This document shows, piece after piece, positions 29,255-61,466 of a stretch of DNA of 64,000 bases. The notes beneath the pieces were generated by a model. It saw nothing but the letters and a program-made list of their open reading frames with translations. It made no database searches and had not been told where the DNA came from. Source of the DNA: Escherichia phage vB_EcoS_FFH_1; sequence record KJ190157, one strand, 5' to 3'. Made by a program: the position numbers and the translations under genes. The stretch's first letter is position 1; the number at the start of each line of letters is the position of its first letter.

Positions 29255-29260
29255 ACTGTT

Positions 29261-29545: not shown

Positions 29546-29622
29546 TGGGGTGGCTAGTGGAATTCGAATCCACATAGGCCTGATTCACAATCAGGATCAT
29601 TAACCAATTATGATATAGCCAC
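29546..29622 (-). tRNA. tRNA-His(GUG)
   Basis: perfect T-arm and anticodon stem CCTGA/TCAGG; loop TTCACAA. Confidence 0.7.
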
Positions 29623-29862
29623 AATTGAAAACTCGCAGGGTTAGCGAAACCTTCCTCAATTAGCATGTTCTAGAATACTAATCAAGTTATCTCCTATTGC
29701 ACGCAGCTCAAGACGAGTACGAATTTTCAATTGTGGTGGCTCTCAGAAACTCTTCTACTCTAGCCTTAGCAGCTTACTCCCGAACGCATGTCGGGGAAGT
29801 CTTACTAAGCGCATCAAATAGCACCGTTACACTTTGAGCCATTGATATATCAAGAAGTAGAA

Positions 29863-29993
29863 GGACTTGAACCTTCACGAGATAGACCATTTATCTCAGC
29901 CGCTTTATGAGGTATATTGCAGAGAGTGGATGTTCCCTATAAACCTTTTAGGCAGCCCCGTCTACCGATTCCGGCATACTTCAAGATTTGGAG
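29863..29993 (-). ncRNA. tRNA-like stable RNA candidate (~130 nt)
   Basis: perfect T-arm GAAGG-ACTTGAA-CCTTC at 29870-29886 and 6-bp acceptor pairing 29863-29869 with 29987-29993, but 100-nt interior with no canonical anticodon arm. Confidence 0.35.
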
Positions 29994-29998
29994 GTAGG

Positions 29999-30093
29999 TA
30001 AGGGGATCGAACCCTTACACCGTATCACTACGATCAACCGATTTCAAGTCGGAGTCCAGCGCCAGCCATTGGATTGACCTACCGTATAAATTG
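29999..30093 (-). tRNA. tRNA-Ser(UGA), class II
   Basis: 95 nt with long variable arm; T-arm AAGGG-GATCGAA-CCCTT; loop TTTCAAG. Confidence 0.6.
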
Positions 30094-30105
30094 TTTGGCG
30101 GAAGA

Positions 30106-30196
30106 GGAGAGATTTGAACTCTCAAGCCGTTTTACCAGTCAGCCACTTTCCAAGCGGTTTTCGTCGCCAATTCGATTTGCTCTTCCAATAATAAGA
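30106..30196 (-). tRNA. class II tRNA, probably Ser(GGA)
   Basis: 91 nt; perfect T-arm and 7-bp acceptor; anticodon arm only resolved with mismatches (loop TTTCCAA). Confidence 0.4.
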
Positions 30197-30233
30197 TGAT
30201 GCCTCTATCACACCAGGCAGTTACGCCTCGCTG

Positions 30234-30300
30234 GGATTCGAACCCATTAAAACAGCTCAACCGAGATAGTAGATTTAATTTACTCTGACCATCAAATTTG
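30234..30300 (-). ncRNA. tRNA-like fragment (T-arm only)
   Basis: T-loop GGGATTCGAACCC present but no acceptor partner or anticodon arm found. Confidence 0.25.
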
Positions 30301-30308
30301 GTGCGTGA

Positions 30309-30385
30309 CAAGGGATTCGAACCCTCAAAACCCGACTTCTAAGGACGGTATGTATGCCAATTCCATCAATCACGCGTATTTGGTG
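30309..30385 (-). tRNA. tRNA with UAG anticodon (Leu by anticodon), class I shape
   Basis: 77 nt, short variable region; loop TTCTAAG; discriminator A. Confidence 0.45.
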
Positions 30386-30390
30386 GAGGA

Positions 30391-30469
30391 TAACGAATTC
30401 GAATCGTTCTGATGTCCTCGGTGCAAGCGAGGTGTCCACCCCTAGCAGACCCATCCCCCAAATTCTTTA
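30391..30469 (-). tRNA. tRNA-Ala(UGC)
   Basis: perfect anticodon stem CCTCG/CGAGG, loop GTGCAAG; G3-U70 wobble in acceptor stem. Confidence 0.7.
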
Positions 30470-30571
30470 GTTTACTAAGGCTATTAGCTCGGCGTAACTA
30501 CAGCACCTTCGCTTCGAGCTAATACCTTAGTGAACTATGATGAGGATTTCTCCCCATCAATTTATATAAAT

Positions 30572-30600
30572 ATTATAACAAGAAATTAAGCATTAAGCAA
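30572..30600 (-). promoter_or_regulatory. T5-type promoter driving tRNA block 30469-29999
   Basis: TTGCTT, 17 bp, TATAAT; tRNAs immediately downstream. Confidence 0.7.
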
Positions 30601-30952
30601 GTACATTTTTGCAGATTTCTTGTAGTTCCTTTACATCACGAACGTAAAGGTAGTCTGAACTTCCAGAGTGCATACTTTGCATAAACACACCCTCATCTGG
30701 CGCAGTATCCTTCAAAGTAATTCCTAACCAAAAAGCGGCAAAACGAGGTGTTACCTCACCTTGACTTGCCTTGAATACATCGGCTTCTGTGATCTCCTGA
30801 CCAGTAGAAAGTCCCATATACGGTACGTTCAGATCGATATCTTTGTAGAATTCAGCTAGGTCTTGTTCGAAGTCCCAACCTTTAGAGATAGCGAACTCTA
30901 TTGTTACATGACCGAAATAACCTTGAATCTTGTTTGATAGTTGCATTTGCAA
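30593..30952 (-). CDS. hypothetical protein
   Basis: 119 aa. Confidence 0.5.
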   Translation of the reverse strand: MQMQLSNKIQGYFGHVTIEFAISKGWDFEQDLAEFYKDIDLNVPYMGLSTGQEITEADVFKASQGEVTPRFAAFWLGITLKDTAPDEGVFMQSMHSGSSDYLYVRDVKELQEICKNVLA

Positions 30953-30961
30953 TTCCTTATT

Positions 30962-31035
30962 TTGAGTTAATTGGTACTCGGTGATAGAATCGAACTATCA
31001 CAACCGCCGTGTAAAGACGGGGTTCTCCCATTAAA
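30962..31035 (-). tRNA. tRNA-Val(UAC)
   Basis: perfect T-arm GATAG-AATCGAA-CTATC; loop GTGTAAA. Confidence 0.6.
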
Positions 31036-31178
31036 CTAACCGAGCAAAAGATTTGCTACTAAAAATGCTTCGAACAGAAATTCACAAAATCCCGCTAAAA
31101 ACATACCTATTGTAAAATCGGCAGAAAATACATAGGAATCTTTTATTTTCTGCTTCATTAAGTAAAACCAGATAGTCA

Positions 31179-31496
31179 TTAAAATCTCTCCATTCTAAAG
31201 CCAATGAAGTAAGGTGCATTACACGGAACATGCTTAAGATCTTTAAGAGTAATTTTACGTCCTAAGCGTCGTTCCATACAAGTGAAACATAGAACAATAT
31301 CTTTGGGCTGCCCTTTTCTTATCTGATCCCAGACCCAATCTTCAACCATACACATTTCATGGTATTGTTCACAGTCTCGACAATAATGACACTGATGTTC
31401 TGGTACTTTTTGATTTTTAATACACAGTTCAGTAAAGCGTTTTCCGGCTCTGCCAGACATTTCTGATATTGTTTCTAGAACTTTGTTAATATTCAT
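31179..31496 (-). CDS. Cys-rich hypothetical protein
   Basis: 105 aa; HQCHYCRDCEQYHEMC...CFTCMERR. Confidence 0.5.
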   Translation of the reverse strand: MNINKVLETISEMSGRAGKRFTELCIKNQKVPEHQCHYCRDCEQYHEMCMVEDWVWDQIRKGQPKDIVLCFTCMERRLGRKITLKDLKHVPCNAPYFIGFRMERF

Positions 31497-31513
31497 AACA
31501 AATTCCTTTAAAT

Positions 31514-31592
31514 TGGTAGATCGCCTGGGACTCGAACCCAGAACCTTCCGATTAAAAGTCGGATGCTACTAAACCTATTGAGCTAGCGACCT
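31514..31592 (-). tRNA. tRNA-Lys(UUU)
   Basis: perfect T-arm and anticodon stem TCCGA/TCGGA; loop TTAAAAG. Confidence 0.7.
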
Positions 31593-31781
31593 ATTAGTAG
31601 CCATTATATACTTCTTTAATAGAATGGACTTTTAAGTAAGGATGATTAATCCCAAACTCCGCCATTACTTCTTTTTCATCTTTTCCATAATGTGCAAGTA
31701 AGGATCTTGAGGTATTATTACCTAAACGTTTGTCATTTACTACTAATCGAAATACTTTCATTTCGAAATCCTCTATTAAAA

Positions 31782-31859
31782 TGGAAGCGGGTGCAGGAAT
31801 CGAACCTACCTCTTTCTAGCTTATGAGACTAGCGATCTCTACCAGAGATCTAACCCGCA
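31782..31859 (-). tRNA. tRNA-Met(CAU) (or Ile2)
   Basis: loop TTATGAG; mismatch at acceptor pair 1-72. Confidence 0.55.
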
Positions 31860-31865
31860 ATTGTT

Positions 31866-31941
31866 TGGTCAGTGCGGCAGGACTCGAACCTGCGACCCGA
31901 AGCATCCAAGGCTCCCACGCTACCAACTGCGCTACGCACTG
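31866..31941 (-). tRNA. tRNA-Pro(UGG)
   Basis: perfect T-arm GCAGG-ACTCGAA-CCTGC and acceptor; loop ATCCAAG. Confidence 0.65.
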
Positions 31942-31950
31942 TTAATTCTT

Positions 31951-32148
31951 TTATTGTGGGGGGATATTAATAATTCGTCCATCTACACAATAAACGGTAC
32001 TAGGGATTGTACTGTATATGTAGAAATTCTTTATATTACTCTCTCCGCCACAGAAATTTTTAGCAAATTCATACTCTTTATTAATGGTTGAGTCAAGTTT
32101 AAAACAACCAGTAAGTAGGAATACAGATAGCAATAAAACTTTCTTCAT
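31951..32148 (-). CDS. small lipoprotein
   Basis: 65 aa; lipobox LLTGC; promoter at 32181-32209. Confidence 0.5.
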   Translation of the reverse strand: MKKVLLLSVFLLTGCFKLDSTINKEYEFAKNFCGGESNIKNFYIYSTIPSTVYCVDGRIINIPPQ

Positions 32149-32180
32149 TTTGCTTTCCTTCTCTTCACTTTATAAAATAT

Positions 32181-32209
32181 ATTATACAGAGAATTAAGTA
32201 AAATAGCAA
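32181..32209 (-). promoter_or_regulatory. T5-type early sigma70 promoter
   Basis: TTGCTA, 17 bp, TATAAT. Confidence 0.7.
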
Positions 32210-32358
32210 ATGAATTTTTAATAAATTTACTTATTGTGTAGGCCACCTGGAGGCTATGAACCCCACGGCTGACAAAGAAGTTTGCGAGACTTCTCTTAAA
32301 AGCCAGAATAGACCCGCCGATCTATCGGAACCTACATAATAAGTAAACTTTATAGTGT

Positions 32359-32479
32359 CATTCTAGACAGGACTCGAACCTGTTATCACTTGTGCGGACT
32401 TACGAGAACCATTCTTTCACTCGAATCGAACGAGCTTCTGCCCTAGCCAAGCTGGTTTCCCCATCAACCACGCTAGAAT
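32359..32479 (-). ncRNA. tRNA-like stable RNA candidate (~120 nt)
   Basis: perfect T-arm ACAGG-ACTCGAA-CCTGT at 32367-32383 and perfect 7-bp acceptor pairing 32360-32366 with 32473-32479; long interior. Confidence 0.35.
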
Positions 32480-32601
32480 GTTTGATTGTTTTCAGTGCAA
32501 GAGTCCGAGTCTTGGACACGACCGCTTCGCAAGTACATAGGCAGCTTATCATGAGTCAGCACTTCCGAATTGCTAGCCCCGTGTTCTGCACTGAAATTTT
32601 A

Positions 32602-32949
32602 TTAGTTTAACCGTAAAGTATTATCTACTTCACCATTAATTGTTCGGCATTCCTCTGGGATTGCCGGTGTAGCCTTGTATTCCCACCACTCAGCACCATC
32701 ATATTCCCCACGTTCTAGCCAAGTTCCATCGGCAAACCATACATTACCATAAAGTAATTGTCCACCGTATCCAGAATCATATTCAAAGTCTAGGTTATTA
32801 AGAAACCCCTCAATGTCTTCTTCTGTATAATCTAAAGGTAATACCCAGACTTTTTTGTCCCCATAATACCCAAATTCTATTTTAATACACTTAACTTTAG
32901 AATTGGTATTTTTTAAGGCGAGTAACAGCTCTTCTTTAGCATTACGCAT
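32602..32949 (-). CDS. hypothetical protein
   Basis: 115 aa. Confidence 0.5.
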   Translation of the reverse strand: MRNAKEELLLALKNTNSKVKCIKIEFGYYGDKKVWVLPLDYTEEDIEGFLNNLDFEYDSGYGGQLLYGNVWFADGTWLERGEYDGAEWWEYKATPAIPEECRTINGEVDNTLRLN

Positions 32950-32974
32950 AGTATATTCTCATACTGAATTAAGT

Positions 32975-33051
32975 TGGCGCGACCGATGGGATTTGAACCC
33001 ACATTCTCTCCCGTGACAGGGGAGTACCATTACCAAGCCAGCCCCGGTCGC
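32975..33051 (-). tRNA. tRNA-Asp(GUC)
   Basis: perfect anticodon stem CTCCC/GGGAG, loop GTGACAG; perfect acceptor. Confidence 0.75.
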
Positions 33052-33060
33052 ATAATTCAT

Positions 33061-33246
33061 TTACTCAGCTTTGAGTTTTTCAATAGCTGCATTAAGTTCT
33101 TTAAGAAACTCTTTTCGTACATTAAGACGATTGAGACTTACTAGTATATCGTGTTTAAGTTCTTCGATGTATTTCTTTTCAACTTCAATATTGTTGATAG
33201 TGCTATCACGATGAACTTCTAGCTGCGCAATTACATTCTTGGACAT
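33061..33246 (-). CDS. hypothetical coiled-coil protein
   Basis: 61 aa. Confidence 0.4.
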   Translation of the reverse strand: MSKNVIAQLEVHRDSTINNIEVEKKYIEELKHDILVSLNRLNVRKEFLKELNAAIEKLKAE

Positions 33247-33348
33247 GCTTGTTTCCTCAGTTATTAATGAAAATGGTATCTGTGGCTGAATTCGATGTCA
33301 GCAATGATAGCTGGTTGGCTACCGGTTTACTTAACTCTACACAGAATT

Positions 33349-33431
33349 TGGCGGGCCGTGTAGGATTCGAACCTACGTTGTCTTTCGACATGGATTAACA
33401 GTCCACCGCCAAACCGCTTGGCTAACGACCC
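33349..33431 (-). tRNA. tRNA-Asn(GUU) with extended variable region
   Basis: perfect T-arm GTAGG-ATTCGAA-CCTAC; D-stem GCCA/TGGC; loop TTAACAG; 13-nt variable region. Confidence 0.55.
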
Positions 33432-33583
33432 TAAATTTATATTGCTGACTAGGATTTTCACCTAGACGGAGTTAGCACCGTAGCGTGTAGCGGCATACCT
33501 CTCCAAACCGTGCCTCATCTTTCAATTACGGAGACAGTGTTCCTACGCGTGCCTGAATTGATTCAACAATTCTTCCAGCAAAT

Positions 33584-33659
33584 TGGACGACCGCATGAGA
33601 TTTGAACTCACATAAAAAGGATTTGCAATCCTTCGCCTAAGCCCTTCAGCCAACGGTCG
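33584..33659 (-). tRNA. tRNA-Cys(GCA)
   Basis: perfect anticodon stem AAGGA/TCCTT, loop TTTGCAA. Confidence 0.7.
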
Positions 33660-33707
33660 GTTTATCTTGTTCTGTCATGTTGCTTCTCCAGTTCAATTTA
33701 TGTAATT

Positions 33708-33736
33708 ATTATACAGAACTTTTGGAAACTAAGCAA
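33708..33736 (-). promoter_or_regulatory. T5-type promoter driving tRNA block 33659-32975
   Basis: TTGCTT, 17 bp, TATAAT. Confidence 0.7.
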
Positions 33737-34016
33737 CTACATTTTTTAAGAATTTGATGCCTTTCTTTTTCTTCTTATATTTCCACGTTAATGGATTCTG
33801 TCGATTATGAACGCTTGAGATCTTTGTCTCGTCAAAGTTCTTCAATATCATGTAATCACAGGATAATTGTTCTAGTAGAATGTGATCACCGTCAAAAGCG
33901 TATACATAAGGCTGTTGACTAACACGATAATGATAGACTTTGTTAATTCTACGTTTCAGCGACTTATCAGCGCAGTAAATAAAGAAGTTTTCAGGATGCA
34001 TCAGCAGCTCCTTCAA
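33729..34016 (-). CDS. hypothetical protein
   Basis: 95 aa. Confidence 0.45.
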   Translation of the reverse strand: MKELLMHPENFFIYCADKSLKRRINKVYHYRVSQQPYVYAFDGDHILLEQLSCDYMILKNFDETKISSVHNRQNPLTWKYKKKKKGIKFLKNVVA

Positions 34017-34099
34017 TTTGGTGCACCCTGTTCGTATCGAACGAACCTCTCAAGCTCTTCAGGCAAGCGCTAATCCATCTCAGCTAAAGGTGCAAATTT

Positions 34100-34176
34100 T
34101 GGCAAACCTACTAGGACTCGAACCTAGACCGTACGGTTTTGGAGACCGACATGCTGTCCAGTAACACTCTAGGAAT
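34100..34176 (-). tRNA. tRNA-Trp(CCA)
   Basis: perfect T-arm CTAGG-ACTCGAA-CCTAG; loop TTTGGAG; two acceptor mismatches. Confidence 0.55.
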
Positions 34177-34184
34177 GCAGAAAT

Positions 34185-34261
34185 TGGCGTCCTGTGCGGG
34201 GATCGAACCCGCAAATCCTACCTTGAAAGGGTAGTGACTTTACCAGTTTGTCTAACAGGAC
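34185..34261 (-). tRNA. tRNA-Glu(UUC)
   Basis: perfect T-arm, anticodon stem CTACC/GGTAG and acceptor; loop TTGAAAG. Confidence 0.75.
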
Positions 34262-34268
34262 TTAAATT

Positions 34269-34359
34269 TGGTGTTGGATGATGGAGTCGAACCACCCGAG
34301 ACCCTTCCGAGTCGGCAGATTTACAGTCTGCTTCGCTACCTCTACGATACTAATCCAAC
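34269..34359 (-). tRNA. tRNA-Tyr(GUA), class II
   Basis: 91 nt with long variable arm; perfect anticodon stem GCAGA/TCTGC, loop TTTACAG. Confidence 0.7.
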
Positions 34360-34489
34360 ATATTTAGAAGTATTCAAAAATTCTCATTTAAACACTTTTA
34401 AATATGTTTTCAAATTAGGTAACTATTATACCAAGTTTTAAGGCACTGAGCAAGTCAAATTTTAAAGAACTTGCTCAGTGCTATATTAG

Positions 34490-34765
34490 TTAGTCGAACT
34501 TAGGAGTGACAGTTAAGGAGAACGGAAGTTCGAAAACTTCTTCACCCTCATTACTAACGGTAACTACACGACCTTTAAGTTCAGACATTAAAATATCAAT
34601 ATCAGCTTTTGCATCTGGAGCCATGCCAGCTTCAATACATTTAGCTTTAACCTCCGGTAGAAGATCTACGTTATAGAGATAGAGCCACTCAATCTCACCT
34701 TCCCAGTCTTCCCAGGATTTGCAGATTGCACTTTCAATACCAGTTGCTGCAACACGATTTTGCAT
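34490..34765 (-). CDS. hypothetical protein
   Basis: 91 aa; promoter 34785-34814. Confidence 0.5.
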   Translation of the reverse strand: MQNRVAATGIESAICKSWEDWEGEIEWLYLYNVDLLPEVKAKCIEAGMAPDAKADIDILMSELKGRVVTVSNEGEEVFELPFSLTVTPKFD

Positions 34766-34784
34766 TCGTTAACTCCTTCATCAA

Positions 34785-34814
34785 TTTATACAACTATTAT
34801 ATCAGAAATTTAAA
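34785..34814 (-). promoter_or_regulatory. T5-type early sigma70 promoter
   Basis: TTGCCT, 18 bp, TATAAT. Confidence 0.6.
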
Positions 34815-34855
34815 GCAAAAGGCAAGTACATTTTTAAAAATTCTGTTTGGAGGAG

Positions 34856-35062
34856 CTAAACTCCAGATTCTTCAGCTAAGTCTAGGCTAATAAGAGTTAT
34901 AGCCATAATTGCTGCACCGTGTTCTTTTTCTCCGGTGTTTTTAGCAGAGTCTATAATAGTCTTAATCTGTTCGTAATAGCCTTTTACTTCTTGTTCAATA
35001 CCTGCCTCGGCTATCATGCCTTTAGTCATGATTCGTTGCATAGTAATTTCACGGTTAGCCAT
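34856..35062 (-). CDS. hypothetical protein
   Basis: 68 aa. Confidence 0.4.
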   Translation of the reverse strand: MANREITMQRIMTKGMIAEAGIEQEVKGYYEQIKTIIDSAKNTGEKEHGAAIMAITLISLDLAEESGV

Positions 35063-35238
35063 GATGTTTCTCCAGCTTCATTTTTAATAGTTTACAAATG
35101 AAATCAACGTCTTCATCTGTACCTAGATCTCTATCTTCAAGAGTTGCCTTGAAGTTTTTAGTCAATTCCATGAGGATAACTTCTCTAGAACGACGTGTTG
35201 GCGGAGGTGGATGTCTATACATCTTATTTCCTTAGTTT

Positions 35239-35315
35239 GGTAGGGGTGGTGGGATTCGAACCCACAAAACCTGAATTTTAAGTCCAGTACCTATGCCAAT
35301 TCGATTACACCCCCG
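35239..35315 (-). tRNA. tRNA with UAA anticodon (Leu by anticodon), class I shape
   Basis: 77 nt; perfect T-arm GTGGG-ATTCGAA-CCCAC; loop TTTTAAG; discriminator A. Confidence 0.5.
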
Positions 35316-35321
35316 TGTAGT

Positions 35322-35510
35322 TTAGTCAATTACTTTTGAGGCTTCAAGGTAGTCGATATAGTGTATGTTTTCTACCGTAATCATATAATCTGCCACTTTA
35401 TCCATAGCTTGGGCTTCAGAGGTAGCTCTGGCTAACCTATATCCTTTTTTATATTCATCCGGGTATTCTCTATCTTGGATAAACACAACATAAACTATAT
35501 ATAGATCCAT
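35322..35510 (-). CDS. hypothetical protein
   Basis: 62 aa. Confidence 0.4.
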   Translation of the reverse strand: MDLYIVYVVFIQDREYPDEYKKGYRLARATSEAQAMDKVADYMITVENIHYIDYLEASKVID

Positions 35511-35529
35511 TTGTGACCTCTATTTAATT

Positions 35530-35607
35530 TGGTGGCTCCCCGAGGATTCGAACCTACGTACCTTCCGGTTATGAGCCGGGTGCTCATACCATATGAGCTT
35601 GAGAACC
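35530..35607 (-). tRNA. tRNA-Met(CAU), possibly initiator
   Basis: loop TTATGAG; three consecutive G-C pairs at base of anticodon stem; weak T-stem. Confidence 0.5.
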
Positions 35608-35613
35608 AGAATT

Positions 35614-35702
35614 TGGCGGAAGAAGCGGGAATCGAACCCACAAGGCTATATTTCAAACCGACAGATTAGCAATCTGCTGCAATACCGTTATGCTATTCTT
35701 CC
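35614..35702 (-). tRNA. tRNA-Ser(GCU), class II
   Basis: 89 nt; perfect acceptor; anticodon stem GCAGA/TCTGC; loop TTAGCAA. Confidence 0.6.
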
Positions 35703-35717
35703 GAATTTATAAGATAT

Positions 35718-35746
35718 ATTATATTAGAAATTTAGCTTCATAGCAA
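35718..35746 (-). promoter_or_regulatory. T5-type promoter driving tRNA block 35702-35239
   Basis: TTGCTA, 17 bp, TATAAT. Confidence 0.7.
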
Positions 35747-36242
35747 GAAAATTTTTCAAGTTTTCGGTAGACATCTCATCCACATCTACGGGAGAAACAA
35801 AGCCGTTTAATTTTCTAGCAAATTTTTCACCCGCAGGATCATTGTCCCCAACAGCTACCAATTTAAAAGGTAGTAATTTCAGTTGCTTTAATAACGCTTT
35901 TCCTGGAGAAGAACCCAACATTGCTAGGGCTGGATAACCAGCATTATGTAACGCAACTGCCTTAAATACAGATTCAGCAATCAATACTACTTTTTCATCT
36001 CCATTGAGAGTTTCTAGTCCCCATACACACTGGGTAGTAGAATAAGTAAAGTATTTAGCTTCAAAGGGGCACTTACCATGACCTTTTGGAGCAGAAGGAT
36101 TATAAGTTTGATAGCCCCTCAACATCCCGGAGAAGTCATACAACGGGACTGTTAGCCATCCTTCCGGACTTAACCAGCAATGATATTTATCTGTATCAAA
36201 TCCTCTAGATAAGAGGTGCTGTGTTAGCTCATCAACATTCAT
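35724..36242 (-). CDS. Toprim-domain protein
   Basis: start set at MNVDEL after AAGAGGA RBS; conserved Glu (LIAESVFKA) and VAVGDNDPAGEK (DxD) Toprim signature. Confidence 0.55.
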   Translation of the reverse strand: MNVDELTQHLLSRGFDTDKYHCWLSPEGWLTVPLYDFSGMLRGYQTYNPSAPKGHGKCPFEAKYFTYSTTQCVWGLETLNGDEKVVLIAESVFKAVALHNAGYPALAMLGSSPGKALLKQLKLLPFKLVAVGDNDPAGEKFARKLNGFVSPVDVDEMSTENLKNFLAMKLNF

Positions 36243-36272
36243 ATTTGGTTCCTCTTTCAAATTTATAGATAT

Positions 36273-36301
36273 ATTATACAGAGAATTTAGCATTCAAGCA
36301 A
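36273..36301 (-). promoter_or_regulatory. T5-type early sigma70 promoter
   Basis: TTGCTT, 17 bp, TATAAT. Confidence 0.7.
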
Positions 36302-36417
36302 TCAAATTTTTTAACTTTTTAGAGGAAAATCATAGGGCACTTAAGGATAGCAGATAAGTGGTGAGGACCAAAATTTGTGACCCCACTAAAAATCCTGGGG
36401 CAATTTTTAAAGACCCC

Positions 36418-36446
36418 TTGACATTTTCGCTGGGGTAGTGTAAAGT
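36418..36446 (+). promoter_or_regulatory. candidate sigma70 promoter for the plus-strand Gly/Gln/Cys module
   Basis: TTGACA, 17 bp, TAAAGT (weak -10). Confidence 0.4.
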
Positions 36447-36508
36447 ATATGTTATGGATGAGTGATCAAATAGACACACATTTTCTATATACTAGGAGGT
36501 GTCAAAAA

Positions 36509-37492
36509 ATGACAGAAGAAGTAACTAAGAGTCCTGAGACCGTCGCTAGCGTTGCAGCAGAATTGCACCGTCACGAGGAATCAGATAAGAAAAAGTGGGA
36601 GAAGGTCAGAGCCTACGAAGAAAAACATCGTGAACACGATGATAAAGAAGATGATGATGAACATTGTCATAAATATGGAAAACATAAAATGCAAGAACCA
36701 GTAAACGTATTCACTAGTGGCTTCCCTGGCCTACTGGGTGGTTATCCAGCAAACGCAAGTGCTTTCGGTGGTGAAGGTATGGGACTATTCGGAGCTATCC
36801 TAATCGGTGCTCTATTAACAGGCGGATTCGGTGGTTTCGGTGGATTCGGCGGACGTGGTGTAGTTGGTGAAGGTACCGCAGTTGATGCAGTACTTCAGAA
36901 CCAAGATACCGCTAGTATTCTAGCAGCTATTAACACTACTCGTACAGAAGCTAACCAGGGTACTGGAGCTGTTTTAAGCGCAGTTAACAATGGTTTTAGC
37001 CAGACATCCCAAAACCAGAGCCGTGATACTCAGTCTGTACTGACTACGATCTATGGTACAGGTGCTAATCTGTCTAATCAGATCTGTCAGGAAACTCGCA
37101 ACGTTATTCAGGGTCAGTTCGATCTTTCTCGCCAGATTGATCAATCTTTCGCAGCTAATCAGATAGCTCGTGCACAAGATAAGTTTGATTCTGCACAGAT
37201 CGCTTTCCAGCAGACTTTACAAACTAATAACCAGTTTGCCGCTGTTCAGGCTCAGATGTGTGCTAATCAGAACTCTCTGGAACGTCAGATCGCTGAATGT
37301 TGCTGTGAACTTCAGACTGCGATCGCTGGTGTAACTACTGCGCGTATCCAGGATGAGTTAGATGCATGTCGTCTACGTGAAGCAATCGCTGCGGGTAACG
37401 GTGCTAACGGTCAGGTAATTAATCAAATCGCTGTAAGTCTTGGTGCTATAACTCAGACTCTGGCTGGTCTGCAGGCTAAACTGCCGGCTTAA
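36509..37492 (+). CDS. Gly-rich/Gln-Asn-rich protein of unknown function
   Basis: start at ATG after AGGAGG RBS; charged His/Asp/Lys N-terminus, glycine-zipper hydrophobic segment (GGFGGFGGFGG), Q/N/S/T-rich C-terminus with CCC; E. coli-like codon usage. Confidence 0.6.
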   Translation: MTEEVTKSPETVASVAAELHRHEESDKKKWEKVRAYEEKHREHDDKEDDDEHCHKYGKHKMQEPVNVFTSGFPGLLGGYPANASAFGGEGMGLFGAILIGALLTGGFGGFGGFGGRGVVGEGTAVDAVLQNQDTASILAAINTTRTEANQGTGAVLSAVNNGFSQTSQNQSRDTQSVLTTIYGTGANLSNQICQETRNVIQGQFDLSRQIDQSFAANQIARAQDKFDSAQIAFQQTLQTNNQFAAVQAQMCANQNSLERQIAECCCELQTAIAGVTTARIQDELDACRLREAIAAGNGANGQVINQIAVSLGAITQTLAGLQAKLPA

Positions 37493-37513
37493 TATTAAGG
37501 GGAGGAGCCCATT

Positions 37514-37930
37514 ATGAGTAAATATGGTTTTGTAAATAACGGACTTAATCAAAGTATGGGCTCCCAGCAGCCCCTGCCTGGTCTGGATAACCCCTACTTA
37601 CAACAATTGCAACAGCGTTTAGCAGAAGCGCAACAGATGCAGCAACAACTCCAGCAAAACCCTGGAAGTGTGAGTCCTATGCAAATGATGCAGCAAATGA
37701 GCGGGCAGTCGCAAATGCCTCAACAAATGCAGCAACAGGTGCCTCAGCAGCAAGTTCAGCAACAAACCCAACAACCGCAGGTTTCTGCGGAAGGACAGGC
37801 AGTACTAGCCCTTTTCGAAGACTTCGCAAAGACAGAGGATGGGAAACAGCTTGTATCACTTATGGGTAAGTTTAATAGCTTCTGCCAAAGCCAAGTTGCA
37901 AAAGCTCAAAATGGTGGTAATAACTCCTAA
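37514..37930 (+). CDS. Gln-rich low-complexity protein
   Basis: 138 aa; strong RBS GGGGAGGAG; poly-Q/M tracts. Confidence 0.55.
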   Translation: MSKYGFVNNGLNQSMGSQQPLPGLDNPYLQQLQQRLAEAQQMQQQLQQNPGSVSPMQMMQQMSGQSQMPQQMQQQVPQQQVQQQTQQPQVSAEGQAVLALFEDFAKTEDGKQLVSLMGKFNSFCQSQVAKAQNGGNNS

Positions 37931-37939
37931 GGAGAAATT

Positions 37940-38134
37940 ATGTGTTGCAGAAAACCTGTTTCGTGCTGCCCAATGCCTGTAGCACGTTGTTGCTCTCCAG
38001 CAATGTTTACACAAATACCGGCGTTCAATCCCTTTGCCTTTAAGCCTACTCTTATCCTGCCCCCTAGAGTAGATTTTCAGTCAAGATTGGCCTCCCGTAT
38101 GGGTGGTTGCTGTACACCGAGAGTGTGGTTCTGA
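37940..38134 (+). CDS. small Cys-rich protein
   Basis: 64 aa; paired cysteines (MCC...SCCP...RCCSP...GGCCTP); RBS AAGGAGA; terminator follows. Confidence 0.5.
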   Translation: MCCRKPVSCCPMPVARCCSPAMFTQIPAFNPFAFKPTLILPPRVDFQSRLASRMGGCCTPRVWF

Positions 38135-38148
38135 AGAACCAAACAATA

Positions 38149-38182
38149 AAGCCCCTAGTCGAAAGACTTAGGGGCTTTTCTG
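38149..38182 (+). terminator. terminator ending the plus-strand module
   Basis: AGCCCCTA...TAGGGGCT followed by TTTT; A-rich on the other side. Confidence 0.7.
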
Positions 38183-38192
38183 TATTTAAGAT

Positions 38193-38230
38193 AAAAGAAA
38201 AGCCCTGCGCTCTCCAGGGAACGCAGGGCT
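38193..38230 (-). terminator. terminator after SPFH gene
   Basis: perfect 9-bp stem AGCCCTGCG/CGCAGGGCT, U-rich on minus strand. Confidence 0.7.
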
Positions 38231-38254
38231 TACTTCAGATGTTACATGCGGATA

Positions 38255-39202
38255 TTATTTATTACGCATATCCATGATCATTTGACCATCGTAGCCAGTA
38301 CCTACCACAGTCTGTGGTACACCACCTTGATATTTCTGAGCACGAATCATTTCGACTTCCAGTTGTTTCCAACGAATCATCTCAGGAGTAATGGTACGTT
38401 GCAGTGCGGCGTTAGCTTCAGCTTCTTTCTTAGCTGCGTACAGTTTAGCATCTGCGTCACGTTCATTAGCGATAGCTTGGTTGTTGCGAGCTTCACGATC
38501 TGCTTCTGCTTGTTTAACTTTTTGCTGTGCTTCCTGTTCAACACGAGCTAATTCAGCTTTAGCAGCATTAACCTGTTCTTCACGAACTTTGGTATTCTGT
38601 ACCTGTTCCATGATTACCGGTGGCAAAGTAATATCCTGAAGGAATACCTGCTTAACTGTGTAACCATATGGGCGTGCATACTCTTCAACTTCCTGTTGAA
38701 TTGCAGTTTGCAATTGAGCCTGAATTTTAGCATCAAACAAATCTTGTGCTTTAGGTACAGACTTACCAAACTCACGAATAGTAGACAGTAATTTTTCAGT
38801 TACATATTTGTCTAACGCTTGATCCTGAGTACCTGCGTTAATACGGTTAATTGGTGCCTTAGAACCATCAAACTGCAACATAACAGTCAGGTCAACAGTG
38901 GATTTAAACTTATCCTGGCTAGGAACCTGAAGTTTATCTAATTTTACAGCAATATCTTTTGTACTAAAAGTGTCGAAAGATGCAAATGGGTTTACAAGAT
39001 GGAAACCTGGTAATACTGGGTTAGGATCTACTTTACCCAGAAATGTTTGGGTTTTAACCGTACCATCAGAAACAATAGTATATGAATTAAAGGCTAGAAT
39101 CAAGCCTGCTAAACCAACTACAGCACCAATACCCCAACGTTTAATAGTACGAATTACTTTCTGCTCAGAAGTCAGTTCTTTCATATTTTTAGTATTAAAC
39201 AT
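38255..39202 (-). CDS. SPFH/band-7 (HflC/stomatin-like) membrane protein
   Basis: 315 aa; N-terminal TM, SPFH-like core, Ala/Glu/Gln-rich coiled-coil C-terminus. Confidence 0.65.
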   Translation of the reverse strand: MFNTKNMKELTSEQKVIRTIKRWGIGAVVGLAGLILAFNSYTIVSDGTVKTQTFLGKVDPNPVLPGFHLVNPFASFDTFSTKDIAVKLDKLQVPSQDKFKSTVDLTVMLQFDGSKAPINRINAGTQDQALDKYVTEKLLSTIREFGKSVPKAQDLFDAKIQAQLQTAIQQEVEEYARPYGYTVKQVFLQDITLPPVIMEQVQNTKVREEQVNAAKAELARVEQEAQQKVKQAEADREARNNQAIANERDADAKLYAAKKEAEANAALQRTITPEMIRWKQLEVEMIRAQKYQGGVPQTVVGTGYDGQMIMDMRNK

Positions 39203-39236
39203 ATATTTCCTTTGTTTTAGTTACAGTTAATAAAAT

Positions 39237-39311
39237 TGGCCGAGGTGACAGGATTCGAACCTGCATAAAGGAATTTAGAAGACTCCTGCCTCTCCCTTAG
39301 ACTACACCCCG
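39237..39311 (-). tRNA. tRNA-Arg(UCU)
   Basis: T-arm ACAGG-ATTCGAA-CCTGC; loop TTAGAAG; isolated just upstream of the SPFH gene. Confidence 0.6.
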
Positions 39312-39812: not shown

Positions 39813-39884
39813 TACCGACCGTAGGATTCGAACCTACATCTTCCACCAGTTACGGCTTGATAATACCAATTATACTAGGACGGC
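39813..39884 (-). ncRNA. tRNA-like element, identity unresolved
   Basis: perfect T-arm GTAGG-ATTCGAA-CCTAC and partial acceptor pairing, no convincing anticodon arm. Confidence 0.3.
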
Positions 39885-52677: not shown

Positions 52678-52744
52678 TCCTATAGTGTACTTCGCTTCTA
52701 ACAGAGGATCAACAAAGAGATCTTGTTTATCAACTTACAAATAT

Positions 52745-52773
52745 ATTATAACAAGGTTTACAGCAAAAAGCAA
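52745..52773 (-). promoter_or_regulatory. T5-type promoter upstream of phoH (divergent region)
   Basis: TTGCTT, 17 bp, TATAAT. Confidence 0.7.
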
Positions 52774-52965
52774 GTATAATTTTAAATAAACCTATGATAT
52801 TGCTTTTAAGTAAAAAATTTACTTGCTTTTAACGTGAGATGTACGATACTAGATAATCATTTTATATCGCGTGCACGAGTGCGTGATTATACAATTTTTA
52901 ATAGAGGTTGGCAAATAAAATTTTTTGACTCAGATCATGTTACAGAACTTTATAGTAAAATATTA

Positions 52966-52994
52966 TTGACATCCGCCCTCGAATGAGTTATAAT
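52966..52994 (+). promoter_or_regulatory. sigma70 promoter upstream of nrdD
   Basis: TTGACA, 17 bp, TATAAT. Confidence 0.75.
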
Positions 52995-53023
52995 AGTAGT
53001 CTTAGTTAGAGAAGGAGGGTGTA

Positions 53024-57233: not shown

Positions 57234-57662
57234 ATGTTCAATAATGTATTCTCTAAAGAAGCTAACCCAATTTTGGTTAACTTTTGGCGTACTCTCCCAG
57301 CTAGCCTGTATAATGAGGCTATTAACTCTTTGAAAATATGGTGTGAGAATAACGAAATCTCCTTTGCTTTTAAAGATGATATTGATGAGGCTCCCTGTAT
57401 TGTTTTAATTGTGCAGGTAGAGGAGGGTCTTGAAGAGATTGTGGGCTGGAAAGAGTTAGACGAAATGGGCTTAGTTTTTGCGTTAAATTATAAACTGTTT
57501 ATGCCTGCTAAGCATCGCCTTGTTGTTAACTATAAAACTAGTGAATCTCCTGGTTTTCAGGTTAATGAACGTTATGGTTGGTCTTACTCACCGGAAGAAG
57601 TAAATGAGGGGATTCAGAAACTTCGACGTTTCGGGTATATGATCCCGGGTTTAACTGCTTAA
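57234..57662 (+). CDS. hypothetical protein, paralog A
   Basis: 142 aa; shares blocks with downstream gene. Confidence 0.5.
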   Translation: MFNNVFSKEANPILVNFWRTLPASLYNEAINSLKIWCENNEISFAFKDDIDEAPCIVLIVQVEEGLEEIVGWKELDEMGLVFALNYKLFMPAKHRLVVNYKTSESPGFQVNERYGWSYSPEEVNEGIQKLRRFGYMIPGLTA

Positions 57663-57671: not shown

Positions 57672-58064
57672 ATGGAACAAGTATATTGGCGTCAGATTGA
57701 CCCTAGTTTGGTGAAACGTGCGGAGAAGCTGCTACAACGTTGGTTGGGGGTAAGGCAAGCCTCCTTCTCTTTTCCGGAGCAGCAAACGGATGATCCATGC
57801 ATTGGCGTTTTCCTGTCTGGATATGCCGGGGAATGGGAGATGGATTGGAATGAATTGTCCGCTATGGGTTTAATTGTTGCCCTAAATTTCTCTTTGTTCC
57901 ATCCACGTGGTTTGGCCATATGTCGTGTGCCTGATGACGGTTGTTCGCCCCATCTTTTACAGGTGGAAGATGATATTTGGGAGTACACTCCAGATATTCT
58001 CAAAGAAGCTAAAGAACAATTAAACCGTGTTGGGATTTATGTTCCAGGCCTAAATGATGAATGA
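57672..58064 (+). CDS. hypothetical protein, paralog B
   Basis: 130 aa; RBS AAGGAGG; terminator at 58091-58118. Confidence 0.5.
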   Translation: MEQVYWRQIDPSLVKRAEKLLQRWLGVRQASFSFPEQQTDDPCIGVFLSGYAGEWEMDWNELSAMGLIVALNFSLFHPRGLAICRVPDDGCSPHLLQVEDDIWEYTPDILKEAKEQLNRVGIYVPGLNDE

Positions 58065-58090
58065 TTTTTACTAGCTGAACTCTGATTACC

Positions 58091-58118
58091 GAGTCAAAAT
58101 GACTCGGTTTTATCCGTA
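58091..58118 (+). terminator. rho-independent terminator
   Basis: CCGAGTCA-AAA-TGACTCGG followed by TTTTAT. Confidence 0.7.
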
Positions 58119-58155
58119 CTCAAGACCAATGATAGCACCATCCGGAAAATTTTAC

Positions 58156-58184
58156 TTGCAGGATGCCCAAAATCTTGATATAAT
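58156..58184 (+). promoter_or_regulatory. sigma70 promoter with ~490-nt leader before the 929-aa NTPase gene
   Basis: TTGCAG, 17 bp, TATAAT. Confidence 0.6.
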
Positions 58185-58676
58185 ATTTATATTGAGAGAC
58201 ATTAGTAAAAATTGATTTTGCTAATTTTTCTTGTTTACAATCCGCGATACGGAACAGTTAGGCTGCCCCATTAAGGGTTGTTTTAACTATTACTAGTGTT
58301 TATATTGCATTAGTTAATCTTCAATTAAGTGATCTGTGTACCCTGAATTCGGAAAGGTAAATCCAAACCGTGCATATTTAGCTCGTTATATAGGCAGAGC
58401 TTTATATGGGGGTGCGAACGAAAAGAGCAGCGAATGGCGGCACGTACAGTAGTCACCTACCAATAGGATAGTGAGGACAAATAGAATCGGCTTAGCGGCC
58501 AATGACCTAGGTTCTATTCTGTATATGAGCGAAGAGAGCACAGCACTGAGATATGATAACTTATTCATATTGTTTGATGATAATTGATGTTTACGTAAAT
58601 AGTAGTAATAGTTGTTCTATTCTTTCTGAATAGTCCTAAAGAAAAGATTTCTATTAATCAACACAGGAGTATTGTT

Positions 58677-61466
58677 GTGTTTTCTATCCTCCAAGGTCAC
58701 GCCGGTTTTTCTCGTGATTTAGCAACAGGTATTTGGCGAGAAATCAAAGCGGAAGATTATACCTTTGCCAAACGATTCTCGAAAGAGCATCCAGAAGGTA
58801 AACCAGCTTCTATGCCCTTCAAATTTGATGTAATAGAAGAGCACGACCCACAAAGCCTTGCCGAAATGTTACCACTTATGAGACGTTTAACGTCTGACCC
58901 TCATATCGTTGCGGTACGAGGTCGATGTCTTGCACCTAAAAATAATGTGCGACGTAAGAAAGGTAACTTTAATGTATCCAACCCTAGCAATATTATTGCT
59001 ATGGACGTGGATGGTATCCTAGATACCGGTGGGTATGACAAGTTTAATCTTGTAGGTATGGCTCGCCACATTATTAAGATGTTGAATAGTATTAGTGAGG
59101 ATATGTTTCCTCTTGATGCAGGGTTTATTGCTCATGCATCGTCTTCGGCTGGCCTAAAACCAGGTATCCGAATGCACTTAATGCTAGAATCTAACGTCAA
59201 GGTAACTCAAGGTCAGTTAAAGTTCTTATTTACGTCTATCAATGATAGTAGTAAGCAAAAATTCGGTTTTGATATTGCCGACTTAGCTTATTACTCATCT
59301 GTCCAGCTTCACTATTTTGCCGACCCTTTATTTAGCGATGGTATTGTTGATCCGTTTAAAGCGGAGAGTAAGCCACGTCTGGTATATGTTAAAGGTTCGA
59401 AGGTAAATTTGCCCAATAATCTGGTTGACTATGAAACAACTAGAGGGGAATTTAAGGAAGAGTTTTATTCTTTACTTGATCAAATTAAAGGCAAAAAGAT
59501 TGCTTCTGATAAAGTAGAAGAAACCATCAGCGAATTGGAAGAAGCCGAGGATGGGGTGTACTTGCGTATTATCCCCAAACTCTACCATAGAGCATTAGAG
59601 GATGGTGTTGATTTCGCATGGCTAGAACGCGAGATTAAACCCGCTTTATCTGAATATATTGCAACTAAAGATAACAGTCGTAATATTCAAGATTACTTTA
59701 ATAACGGTCGTAAGCAGGCTCTCAAAGCGTTTGTTAATAATTCTAAACGTGAGATCCCATTAAATCTGAAGGGTGTTCCACTCAAGAAATTAGAAGTGGA
59801 TTCTCCACCAGAAGTTCCGTACCTGAAGATTAACATTGTGCCTCCAAAAGGCCATATAACATTTGTTAAGGCAAGTCTTGGTACTGGTAAGACTACGGCA
59901 GTAACTAAATGGCTGGACGCAGGTGTTCTTCCTGGCAACTTTTTAGCAGTTACAAATACTAGAGCACTGGTATCTTCAAACGCTAAGAAATTTAGCGCAG
60001 GACAATATGATAAGTCTGTAGATATGCTCAACTTTAAACGTGGAGCTATTGATCGTATGTCTACAACTATCCACTCTTTGCATAAGTTCAAAAGTTTTAT
60101 TGGTCAAATAGATACCATTTTTATTGATGAATGTGATGCTGTAATGAATGATCTATTATTCGCACCTGTTGTTAAGCAACGTCGCGAATGTATTCAAGTT
60201 CTACGTGACATCCTCATGACAGCTAAAACTGTAATTCTATCAGATGGTGATATTAGTGCCGAAACTATTGAAGCATATGGTTCTCTAATTGATTTTGATA
60301 AACCAGTAGCATTTTATAATCATCACCGTAAGATGCTGTCAAAAGCTCATGCTTATGAGTTCCCGGATGAATCCAGTATTTGGGTTGCACTTCAGACCTC
60401 TCTAGAGATGGGTGAGAAATCTATCCTAGTATCTGATTGTGGGCCGGATGAACTGAATGAGAAGGGCATGGCATTGCGTCGTAATACGGGTGCGCTAGTT
60501 AAGGAAATCCACTCAAACTCCACTTCAGATGTGGATATTAGACGTATTCTGGATTATACGACTAATGAGTTAATTGATCAACAAATTGACTGCTTATTAT
60601 GTAGTCCATCCGTAACGAGTGGCGTTGATTTCAACTATTTTGATAACGTATTTGTTATTACTAGAACTAGTAATCAAGCGCCAAACATGCGTTTCCAAGC
60701 AATTAGGCGCGACCGTGGTGCTCAGAATATCTATTATTTTATTGATAAATCTACGAGTGGATTCTCCGCAGGTTCTGAACAATATAATATTGATGAGGGT
60801 TGGCTGGAGTTAGCACAGCAATTATACGCACGTCGCAGAGAGCTAGAATCTAGGAACTATACTAGTACTTTACGTTATTACTTGCTTGATCAGGGTGCAA
60901 CTATTGATATTTTCAGTGAAAGTTGGGGAACTATTGAAGGTGCTGGTAAAGAGTACACAGAAGAGCGAATTAAAGCTATTCTACATTCAACTCCTGATTA
61001 TTGTGCTCCACGTCATGCGGATGCGTATGAAGCTAAACTACTTCTTGTCCGCTATTATCATCTTGAGTCTATTAAAGATGTAACAGTTGAGCATGTTGAA
61101 CAATATATCAAAGATAAACCGAATGATCGAGCTGCATTCTTCCATAAGATGCACGAGATGTTCTGGGAAGATATTAAGAAGTGTTCAAATGTGACCATTA
61201 AACCATTCATAGAGGCTCTGAAAGGTAAGAAGAAAGACTTCTTCCTTAAAACAGGTCAGAGTGCTAACCCAAAATATGCTAGAATGTATCTTGGTATGAT
61301 GGGTATTGGTAAGGATATGAACACTGAAAATATTGTAGACTGGTACAGAACCTATTGTAAAATCGAGTGTATGCCAATCCCATATAAGTTTATGACTGAT
61401 GAGGAGAAACATATGCATGATGAAGCAATGGCAGAGCTAGGTGCTAGAAATGACAGTGAAGAATAA
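58677..61466 (+). CDS. large NTPase/helicase-like protein (possible replication origin-binding protein)
   Basis: 929 aa, probable GTG start after AGGAG; Walker A SLGTGKTTAV and Walker B IFIDECDAV. Confidence 0.55.
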   Translation: MFSILQGHAGFSRDLATGIWREIKAEDYTFAKRFSKEHPEGKPASMPFKFDVIEEHDPQSLAEMLPLMRRLTSDPHIVAVRGRCLAPKNNVRRKKGNFNVSNPSNIIAMDVDGILDTGGYDKFNLVGMARHIIKMLNSISEDMFPLDAGFIAHASSSAGLKPGIRMHLMLESNVKVTQGQLKFLFTSINDSSKQKFGFDIADLAYYSSVQLHYFADPLFSDGIVDPFKAESKPRLVYVKGSKVNLPNNLVDYETTRGEFKEEFYSLLDQIKGKKIASDKVEETISELEEAEDGVYLRIIPKLYHRALEDGVDFAWLEREIKPALSEYIATKDNSRNIQDYFNNGRKQALKAFVNNSKREIPLNLKGVPLKKLEVDSPPEVPYLKINIVPPKGHITFVKASLGTGKTTAVTKWLDAGVLPGNFLAVTNTRALVSSNAKKFSAGQYDKSVDMLNFKRGAIDRMSTTIHSLHKFKSFIGQIDTIFIDECDAVMNDLLFAPVVKQRRECIQVLRDILMTAKTVILSDGDISAETIEAYGSLIDFDKPVAFYNHHRKMLSKAHAYEFPDESSIWVALQTSLEMGEKSILVSDCGPDELNEKGMALRRNTGALVKEIHSNSTSDVDIRRILDYTTNELIDQQIDCLLCSPSVTSGVDFNYFDNVFVITRTSNQAPNMRFQAIRRDRGAQNIYYFIDKSTSGFSAGSEQYNIDEGWLELAQQLYARRRELESRNYTSTLRYYLLDQGATIDIFSESWGTIEGAGKEYTEERIKAILHSTPDYCAPRHADAYEAKLLLVRYYHLESIKDVTVEHVEQYIKDKPNDRAAFFHKMHEMFWEDIKKCSNVTIKPFIEALKGKKKDFFLKTGQSANPKYARMYLGMMGIGKDMNTENIVDWYRTYCKIECMPIPYKFMTDEEKHMHDEAMAELGARNDSEE

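Follow-up and report, generated by a model that had tools for sequence, protein, structure and literature searches.

The 64,000-nt stretch analysed here (the window; record KJ190157, Escherichia phage vB_EcoS_FFH_1) is the left half of the genome of a T5-like phage (Demerecviridae). We studied a gap between a DUF7415 gene (57672-58064) and the gene of a 929-amino-acid (aa) protein (58677-61466), which corresponds to the bipolar helicase 'D2' of phage T5. As judged from comparison with related phages, this gap very probably encodes a multi-domain RNA of about 440-490 nt on the + strand, whose structure is real and selected in the sense strand. Existing genome records leave the gap blank or give it small hypothetical open reading frames (ORFs). 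The locus is delimited by the following elements:

58088-58113, + strand: terminator of the upstream DUF7415 operon, a hairpin (ACCGAGTCA / TGACTCGGT) followed by a T-run; 5' boundary of the unit
58143-58184, + strand: early promoter with an A/T tract upstream, -35 element TTGCAG (58156-58161) and -10 element TATAAT (58179-58184)
58677-61466, + strand: gene of the 929-aa primase-helicase-like protein (T5 'D2' bipolar helicase), GTG start, annotated 'replication origin binding protein'

The queried stretch matched 439 Demerecviridae phage records and was 98% identical to Salmonella phage L6jm. In these relatives the gap always lies directly 5' of the D2 gene, and the synteny of RNA region and D2 gene is strict across subfamilies. 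The upstream neighbour varies (DUF7415 gene, an inserted HNH endonuclease gene, others).

Promoter and transcription unit

A consensus promoter at 58156-58184, about 490 nt before the GTG start, had been proposed from the sequence alone. It was confirmed by direct reading and by the promoters annotated at the homologous place in T5 and AKFV33. The -35 and -10 elements are separated by 17 nt and an extended -10 TG is present at -15/-14, in agreement with the T5 early consensus TTGCTT-N17/18-TATAATA quoted in the AKFV33 record. A generic sigma-70 scan missed this promoter because its -35 element matches TTGACA at only 3 of 6 positions. Transcription is expected to start at ~58190-58192, and 492 nt separate the end of the -10 element from the GTG at 58677. 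All related loci examined have a promoter at the corresponding position, including those in which its sequence is a different one. In AKFV33-type phages the DUF7415 gene and the RNA are separated by an inserted gene for a putative HNH homing endonuclease (2516-3007 of L001, Escherichia phage AKFV33, corresponding to about 58065-58184 of the window); the insertion brought in a different promoter sequence and left the position unchanged.

Upstream, the hairpin at 58088-58113 was read by eye, since its T-run is short and the terminator scan did not flag it; at the homologous site the T5 record annotates a putative rho-independent terminator. Downstream of the promoter, the scans gave no + strand terminator-like site within 58185-58676 and no convincing + strand internal promoter between the RNA and the GTG in the window, and neither is annotated in T5. 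It follows that in the window the helicase mRNA would begin with this RNA. Nor did we find the arrangement of a terminator-type riboswitch or attenuator: no intrinsic terminator precedes the start codon, and the hairpin closest to it (58617-58633) is not followed by a T-run. A small RNA of 50-300 nt, one of the functions suggested in the sequence-only reading, can be set aside for reasons of size, as the element from 58194 to 58633 comprises ~440 nt in several domains and has no terminator of its own in the window.

Some relatives differ in their transcription signals. Proteus phage 1 has two promoters matching the consensus at 12 of 12 positions, one ahead of the RNA and the other 37 nt ahead of the gene, and Pectobacterium phage DU_PP_V has a promoter-like site at -97. 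In Vibrio phage D437 two terminator-like sites end a region that is positionally equivalent and not detectably homologous, and in Aeromonas phage Akh-2 a hairpin with a T-run was read by eye.

The comparison set comprised 31 distinct leaders. Among close relatives two types occur: type A, found in the window and in T5, and type B, found in OSYSP, NR01 and others. The first ~236 nt of the two types are 87-95% identical and the last ~75 nt 88-89%, whereas the central ~300 nt cannot be aligned and are of almost equal length. Further variants are present in Klebsiella phages, in the Pectobacterium phages DU_PP_V and My1 and in Providencia and Proteus phages.

The gap had been described as free of any credible ORF, and the relatives bear this out. 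Four ORFs of 38-60 aa can be read in it; in the type-A lineage of leaders L012, L032 and L033 they contain stops or show non-synonymous changes only, and in type-B relatives the entire core is swapped for unrelated sequence, such that these ORFs are not conserved. The accompanying claim that the gap is less AT-rich than other intergenic sequence holds for the core (GC content 0.45 for 58330-58560 and 0.48 for 58400-58545) and fails for the gap as a whole, for which the value of 0.36 is lower than the average of the window (0.393) and mid-range among the other ORF-free gaps (0.27-0.44). The last 117 nt (58560-58676) have a GC content of only 0.26; half of them form the 3' arm of a long-range helix (see below), and AU-rich spacers before genes are common here. 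The RNA region is purine-rich, with a GC skew of +0.14 to +0.21.

Predicted RNA structure and its conservation

RNAalifold runs carried out independently for types A and B predicted an identical architecture: two 5' hairpins (H1 and H2), a long-range helix (H3), a three-way junction with the helices Pa, Pb and Pc, and a 3' hairpin. For the window the predicted elements are:

58194-58232, + strand: H1, 5'-terminal hairpin, GAGAGAC-AUUAGUAAAA / UUUUGCUAAU-UUUUCUU
58237-58281, + strand: H2, hairpin with motif M1 (AUACGGAACAGUUAGGCUGCCCCAU, 58247-58271) as its loop
58284-58324, + strand: 5' arm of the long-range helix H3, pairing with 58574-58614; inverted repeats I1 and I3
58325-58573, + strand: core domain, type A, GC content 0.45-0.48, with compensatory pairs 58337/58540, 58440/58530 and 58551/58570
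58444-58524, + strand: three-way junction of Pa (58444-58449/58519-58524), Pb (58452-58478) and Pc (58480-58488/58510-58518)
58489-58500, + strand: motif M2, a GGCU-UAGC-GGCC hairpin that tips Pc; a 9-nt bulge on the 3' side comes next (58501-58509)
58574-58614, + strand: 3' arm of H3, from RNAalifold, arm swaps and the inverted repeats
58617-58633, + strand: 3' hairpin CUAUUC-UUUCU-GAAUAG, without T-run
58634-58676, + strand: AU-rich spacer and ribosome-binding site (GGAG, 58666-58669); the spacer varies by type and is exchanged alone in leader L029

H3 is a helix of ~40 bp that closes the core of ~250 nt. Within the junction, compensatory pairs were found at 58446/58522, 58453/58477, 58481/58517 and 58482/58516. 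The outer hairpins keep their pairing with different sequences: H1 does so in the Pectobacterium and Klebsiella phages, and at the place of the 3' hairpin the Klebsiella phages have CUAUC/GAUAG and the Pectobacterium phages CUUUCC/GGAAAG. The loops behave in the opposite manner. M1, with the consensus ACGGAACAGUnnGGCUGC, is conserved in types A and B as well as in Pectobacterium and Klebsiella. M2, with the consensus (G)GCUUAGCGGC(C), is present in a single copy in the window, and all enterobacterial, Providencia, Proteus and Aeromonas relatives that were examined have its core UUAGCGG unaltered; in My1 the M2 stem carries a change from G-C to A-U. M1 and M2 are spaced by 238-242 nt in the 29 leaders in which both motifs are exact and by 232 nt in My1, where M2 differs. 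This spacing is fixed even though the intervening sequence cannot be aligned between types A and B.

Two further sequence features touch the predicted fold. The 10-mer GTTCTATTCT occurs twice, at 58511-58520 (3' strand of Pc) and at 58614-58623 (5' strand of the 3' hairpin), such that the type-A 5' strand of Pc could pair with either copy. A switch between these alternative pairings was considered and dropped, as neither the L012 lineage nor type B has retained the repeat. In three leaders a 97-nt module of 99-100% identity is located between H1 and H2 (L014 2458-2554, L022 2457-2553 and L030 2460-2556), with core type A in L030 and type B in L014 and L022. The module, which is absent from the window (site ~58237), has predicted hairpins of its own and ends with a hairpin and a U-run; its appearance is that of an insertion that spread recently, or of an additional domain that is optional.

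In type A alone the common structure comprises 152 predicted pairs, with 99.9% of the cells paired and only 2 broken. Changes on both sides occurred in seven pairs, spread over six helices, and 12 pairs show one-sided wobble changes. When the structure was slid by 1-3 columns as a control, 0-1 compensatory pairs remained. Type B likewise gave 7 compensatory pairs versus 0-1 in the controls. The two Pectobacterium phages DU_PP_V and My1, with 59% identical columns, share a common structure of 117 pairs, among them 30 compensatory, 13 one-sided and no broken pairs, compared to 2-4 compensatory pairs in the controls.

Between lineages, MAFFT alignments of the core and the junction lose the structural register, and we therefore used arm swaps and an iterated covariance model. 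The arm-swap test is alignment-free: segments were taken at constant distances from M1 and M2, and the pairing of cognate arms was compared with that of arms from other lineages. Up to seven lineages entered the comparison (Escherichia/Salmonella types A and B, Klebsiella, two Pectobacterium phages, Providencia and Proteus). For H3, cognate duplexes in five lineages had energies of -27 to -38 kcal/mol, compared to -7 to -19.5 kcal/mol for swapped arms (-32.5 cognate vs -11.9 kcal/mol swapped; permutation 1/120). Permutation over seven lineages gave 1/5040 for Pc and 9/5040 for Pa; for H1 and H2 the values were 2/120 and 4/120.

A junction covariance model with DU_PP_V as its only seed recovered My1, type B and Providencia. 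After rebuilding, it located the junction at the expected positions in a Klebsiella phage (21 bits, E 0.002) and in Proteus phage 1 (17 bits, E 0.05), and it gave a candidate in Aeromonas phage Akh-2 (E 0.25). No match was obtained with the rebuilt model in Vibrio phages. Type A was detected weakly, at 11-12 bits and in the right place, which indicates that the core of type A, i.e. that of the window and of T5, is the most diverged.

The sense strand folds with -127 to -175 kcal/mol, the antisense strand with -98 to -146 kcal/mol, such that the sense strand is better by 12-48 kcal/mol. H3 contains 3-8 G·U pairs, and in five of six lineages its antisense duplex has 38-58% of the energy of the sense duplex; the exception is My1 with 80% (-25.0 vs -31.4). 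The G·U pairs together with the folding energies point to a sense-strand RNA made from the conserved promoter and argue against a DNA cruciform. An element acting only at the DNA level, i.e. a cruciform or a protein-binding site built on inverted repeats in double-stranded DNA, could account for the long imperfect inverted repeats I1 and I3 that flank the core and for invariant boxes at a fixed spacing, as origin binding sites might show. However, the many G·U pairs would be mismatches in DNA, the one-sided changes nearly all preserve wobble pairs in the sense strand, and nested helices, the three-way junction and hairpins of 4-9 bp covary, none of which cruciform extrusion needs. We consider such an element highly improbable.

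A neutral spacer or decayed gene remnant that folds by chance would be in line with the presence of short ORFs and with a single-sequence z-score of only -2.15. It would leave unaccounted for the compensatory changes over seven lineages, with permutation tests at the attainable minimum, and the constant length and motif spacing that persist despite sequence replacement; moreover, the ORFs are not conserved. This explanation is hardly credible. The structure (covariation and strand asymmetry) and the transcription context (a conserved promoter and a predicted position in the 5' part of the mRNA) thus bear out the structured half of the 'structured regulatory leader' proposed from the sequence alone; regulation is a candidate role.

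The RNA is confined to the Demerecviridae of Enterobacterales and near relatives. A scan of viral and metagenome contigs for M1 and M2 at the proper distance returned only T5-like contigs and one chance match in a coding region (L072); a scan of genome contigs for M1 alone returned chance matches only. Vibrio phages have a non-coding region of 600-700 nt with its own conserved islands and without M1 or M2. More generally, T5-like phages of Vibrio and Aeromonas carry non-coding stretches of 600 to 1600 nt upstream of the helicase gene, with a promoter, a 5' hairpin and conserved islands (L036, L040, L249, L250, L251, L257 and L262, with L036 1750-2416 as an example; L037 1740-2330; L038 about 620-2240). 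Some of these stretches have terminator-like ends, and the small ORFs annotated there are probably spurious. Akh-2 contains two CUUAGCGG motifs, near 1195 and 1441.

The D2 protein and possible roles of the RNA

The T5 D2 bipolar helicase has been studied biochemically by Wong, Sayers and Sanders and was proposed as initiator (PMC3632103). The positions of the domains and of the Walker A motif in the window protein agree with those given for T5 D2 in the same paper. Its database name, 'replication origin binding protein', derives from the match of residues 389-533 to the helicase domain of herpesvirus UL9 (Pfam Herpes_ori_bp, with UL9-type matches in the Protein Data Bank, PDB, on the same stretch). 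The N-terminal 390 aa (58677-59846) contain an invariant DxD (D110, D112), the residues S155/S157/G159...H167, and D202. An exhaustive search with Pfam scans of distant matches traced their remotest detectable relationship to the N-termini of VapE-like, PriCT-2 and DUF5906 proteins, which show the primase-helicase architecture; a word-indexed search gave two fragments only. A profile search of this domain against the PDB returned no more than a non-significant GapR-like hint. In its sequence features D2 resembles a fusion of an AEP-like primase domain with an SF2 helicase, a point absent from the annotations.

Phages with different RNA core types (A or B) also diverge in D2 residues 1-560, and the C-terminal 40% of the protein is nearly identical between them. 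The invariant M1 and M2 in a covarying scaffold, the strict adjacency of RNA and gene, and this co-variation of core type and D2 residues 1-560 make D2 the most likely partner of the RNA. As a tentative mechanism, somewhat below an even chance, we propose that the RNA may be a feedback binding site on the D2 mRNA or a component of a ribonucleoprotein. It would act as RNA, neither as DNA nor through a peptide. The invariant loops M1 and M2 would be the contact sites for a partner, most likely the D2 primase-helicase initiator or else another early replication protein, and binding of the partner would either feed back on D2 synthesis or build a ribonucleoprotein for replication initiation. Taken as a whole, an uncatalogued family of large structured RNAs that works by this mechanism is our best explanation, to which we would give nearly an even chance.

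Several observations weigh against this explanation. All seven compensatory pairs of type A come from the split of L012, L032 and L033 from the other leaders, such that independent events are few; the pairs were counted on the very sequences from which the RNAalifold structures had been derived; and the single-sequence z-score given above is modest. Physical linkage confounds the association between RNA type and N-terminal D2 sequence and could by itself suffice to explain it. Inspection of the alignments and folds by eye gave no conserved pairing of the RNA with the ribosome-binding site: a GCGAUAC/GUAUUGU pairing is possible in types A and B, and the Pectobacterium and Klebsiella sequences cannot form it. 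The second promoter of Proteus phage 1 and the terminator-like sites of Vibrio phage D437 mean that the RNA need not be a leader. Finally, distant D2 homologues (33-37% identity, environmental contigs, L253-L259 and L266) have no upstream gap at all, which indicates that D2-type proteins can work without such an RNA.

One rival is a trans-acting non-coding RNA with a role unrelated to D2, such as host-factor sequestration or anti-defence, that would be co-transcribed with the gene or processed from its mRNA for convenience. In every lineage a hairpin stands right at the 5' end of the predicted transcript, a feature of stable RNAs, and the cassette-like exchange of the core between otherwise similar phages resembles the mosaic turnover of host-interaction modules. 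The gene of Proteus phage 1 has a perfect promoter of its own after the RNA, the positionally equivalent region of D437 ends in terminator-like sites, and the upstream neighbours include Sir2-like and DUF7415 genes. The strict synteny with the D2 gene across subfamilies weighs against this reading, as does the lack of a + strand terminator or a good promoter before the gene in the window and T5, and Rfam 15 revealed no similarity to a known decoy or regulatory RNA. A D2-independent role appears rather unlikely to us.

A replication origin had also been suggested from the sequence alone. In its most specific form the transcript would be a pre-primer similar to ColE1 RNA II, which would form an R-loop near 58560-58676 and be extended or handed to D2, the loading of which would take place there. 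The order of a strong constitutive early promoter, a purine-rich structured RNA of ~500 nt, a stretch with a GC content of 0.26 and the initiator gene would fit such an origin, and the length is close to that of ColE1 RNA II, which measures ~550 nt. To our knowledge the T5 origin has never been mapped at sequence level; one internal origin is said to lie near the genome centre, and the present locus is found at about 48% of the T5 genome. As far as it is summarised in PMC3632103, an early electron-microscopy study (Bourguignon 1976) found multiple internal T5 origins. On the other side, the region 57900-59000 contains neither iterons nor multi-copy repeats, its direct repeats being two-copy and of low identity. 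A convincing antisense promoter is missing as well: the sole candidate, on the - strand at 58209-58180, matches at 9 of 12 positions, and its conservation cannot be separated from that of H1. The positive GC skew is general for the region and not particular to the gap, T5 has its own primase, and the D2 homologues without upstream gap again count against the idea. In addition, the strand bias of T5 recombineering suggests dominant replication from one genome end (PMC10055335). On balance an origin of this kind is not favoured, and we regard it as unlikely.

A variant that combines elements of the above would make the RNA a dedicated component of replication initiation. It would then be part of a D2 ribonucleoprotein that helps to select or open a site, or a pre-primer whose R-loop is extended by D2, with the A or B core setting specificity together with the N-terminal part of D2. 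We consider this specialised version decidedly unlikely.

Work on T5 as a model phage goes back about 70 years, and phages related to it rank with the most often sequenced phages of therapy and biocontrol. An unannotated RNA of ~450 nt before the gene of the proposed initiator may be a missing player in T5 replication initiation or early gene control. If the RNA indeed served replication initiation, it would be the first such large structured RNA known to serve this step as a requirement in a classical lytic coliphage. The system is tractable, with E. coli as host, an editable phage, natural cassettes of the type A and B cores and the variant with the 97-nt insertion. For annotation, the case is of practical relevance since pipelines leave the gap empty or insert spurious small ORFs, as in the Vibrio phages Chazly21 and D437.

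Elsewhere in the window, 57234-57662 and 57672-58064 are adjacent paralogous genes with two DUF7415 repeats each, located between the Sir2-like gene and the RNA. A tRNA cluster on the - strand (27984-39311) comprises 22 genes according to ARAGORN and 23 according to Rfam; the tools disagree on a tRNA-Ala at 30381-30459, reported by ARAGORN only, and on 39813-39884, reported by Rfam only (35.5 bits). Outside the tRNA region, further stretches of 350-565 nt have no ORF of at least 60 aa (5818-6382, 8699-9255, 9849-10381 and 52678-53023). In the T5 layout, those near 8.7-10.4 kb would presumably be close to the injection-stop region and to the place where the left terminal repeat ends.

Comparison with known RNA families and systems

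At the gathering threshold, Rfam 15 returned only tRNAs for the whole window. For 57900-58800 with E up to 10 it gave five matches at chance level (13-19 bits), and for nine relatives with E up to 1 no match on the RNA region; ARAGORN found no tRNA or tmRNA in the gap. A resemblance of M1 and M2 to the CR-IV/V segments of RNase P (ACAGAAC...GGCUUA) was dropped, as no RNase P model scores. The full-text literature searched, with subscription journals and unpublished candidate lists outside its scope, contained neither a description of an RNA at this locus nor a T5 transcript map covering it, and a survey of candidate structured phage RNAs does not mention the T5-like group. As judged from Rfam 15 and this literature, the RNA appears to represent a family of large structured bacterial and phage RNAs that has so far not been catalogued.

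As a structured 5' untranslated region on the mRNA of a replication protein in a lytic phage, the RNA resembles the operators of T4 genes 32 and 43 and, in the former respect, the leaders of ribosomal-protein mRNAs. Operators of the T4 type, however, comprise tens of nucleotides and overlap the ribosome-binding site, whereas the present RNA is ~10x larger, ends ~43 nt before the start codon and has no conserved pairing with the ribosome-binding site.

With ColE1 RNA II and the promoter-dependent origins of T7 and T4 (oriF/oriG) it shares a strong promoter, a transcript of ~500 nt beside replication functions and an AT-rich stretch downstream. The likeness to RNA II extends to a structured RNA, the fold of which matters in RNA II; for the origin transcripts of T7 and T4 we know of no need for an elaborate conserved fold. 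As a counterpart to the antisense RNA I of ColE1 there is no more than the weak - strand promoter candidate at 58209-58180, no iterons were found, and the origin is here a candidate only.

A large structured RNA immediately 5' of, and on the same strand as, the gene of a large nucleic-acid enzyme is also the arrangement of HEARO/omega RNA with IscB and of retron and DRT RNAs with reverse transcriptases. These RNAs usually bind the enzyme encoded just downstream. As in these systems, RNA variant and enzyme variant travel together, here as core type and D2 divergence. The differences are that the enzyme is a primase-helicase instead of a nuclease or reverse transcriptase, that binding is suggested here by analogy only, that no guide-like or template-like segment was identified in the RNA, and that distant homologues of the enzyme occur without it.

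In terms of size and build the closest counterparts are GOLLD, ROOL and OLE, which belong to the same class of 400-800 nt with several domains and invariant loops in covarying helices. The RNA shares with GOLLD and ROOL the occurrence in phages and with all three a function that cannot be deduced from sequence. It differs from them in matching no Rfam model and in its location, being placed directly upstream of a primase-helicase gene, with which it would be co-transcribed, rather than beside tRNAs. The few large structured RNAs known from bacteria and phages would thus gain a further family. Its setting, as the leader of an initiator gene of primase-helicase type in a classical model phage, is novel.

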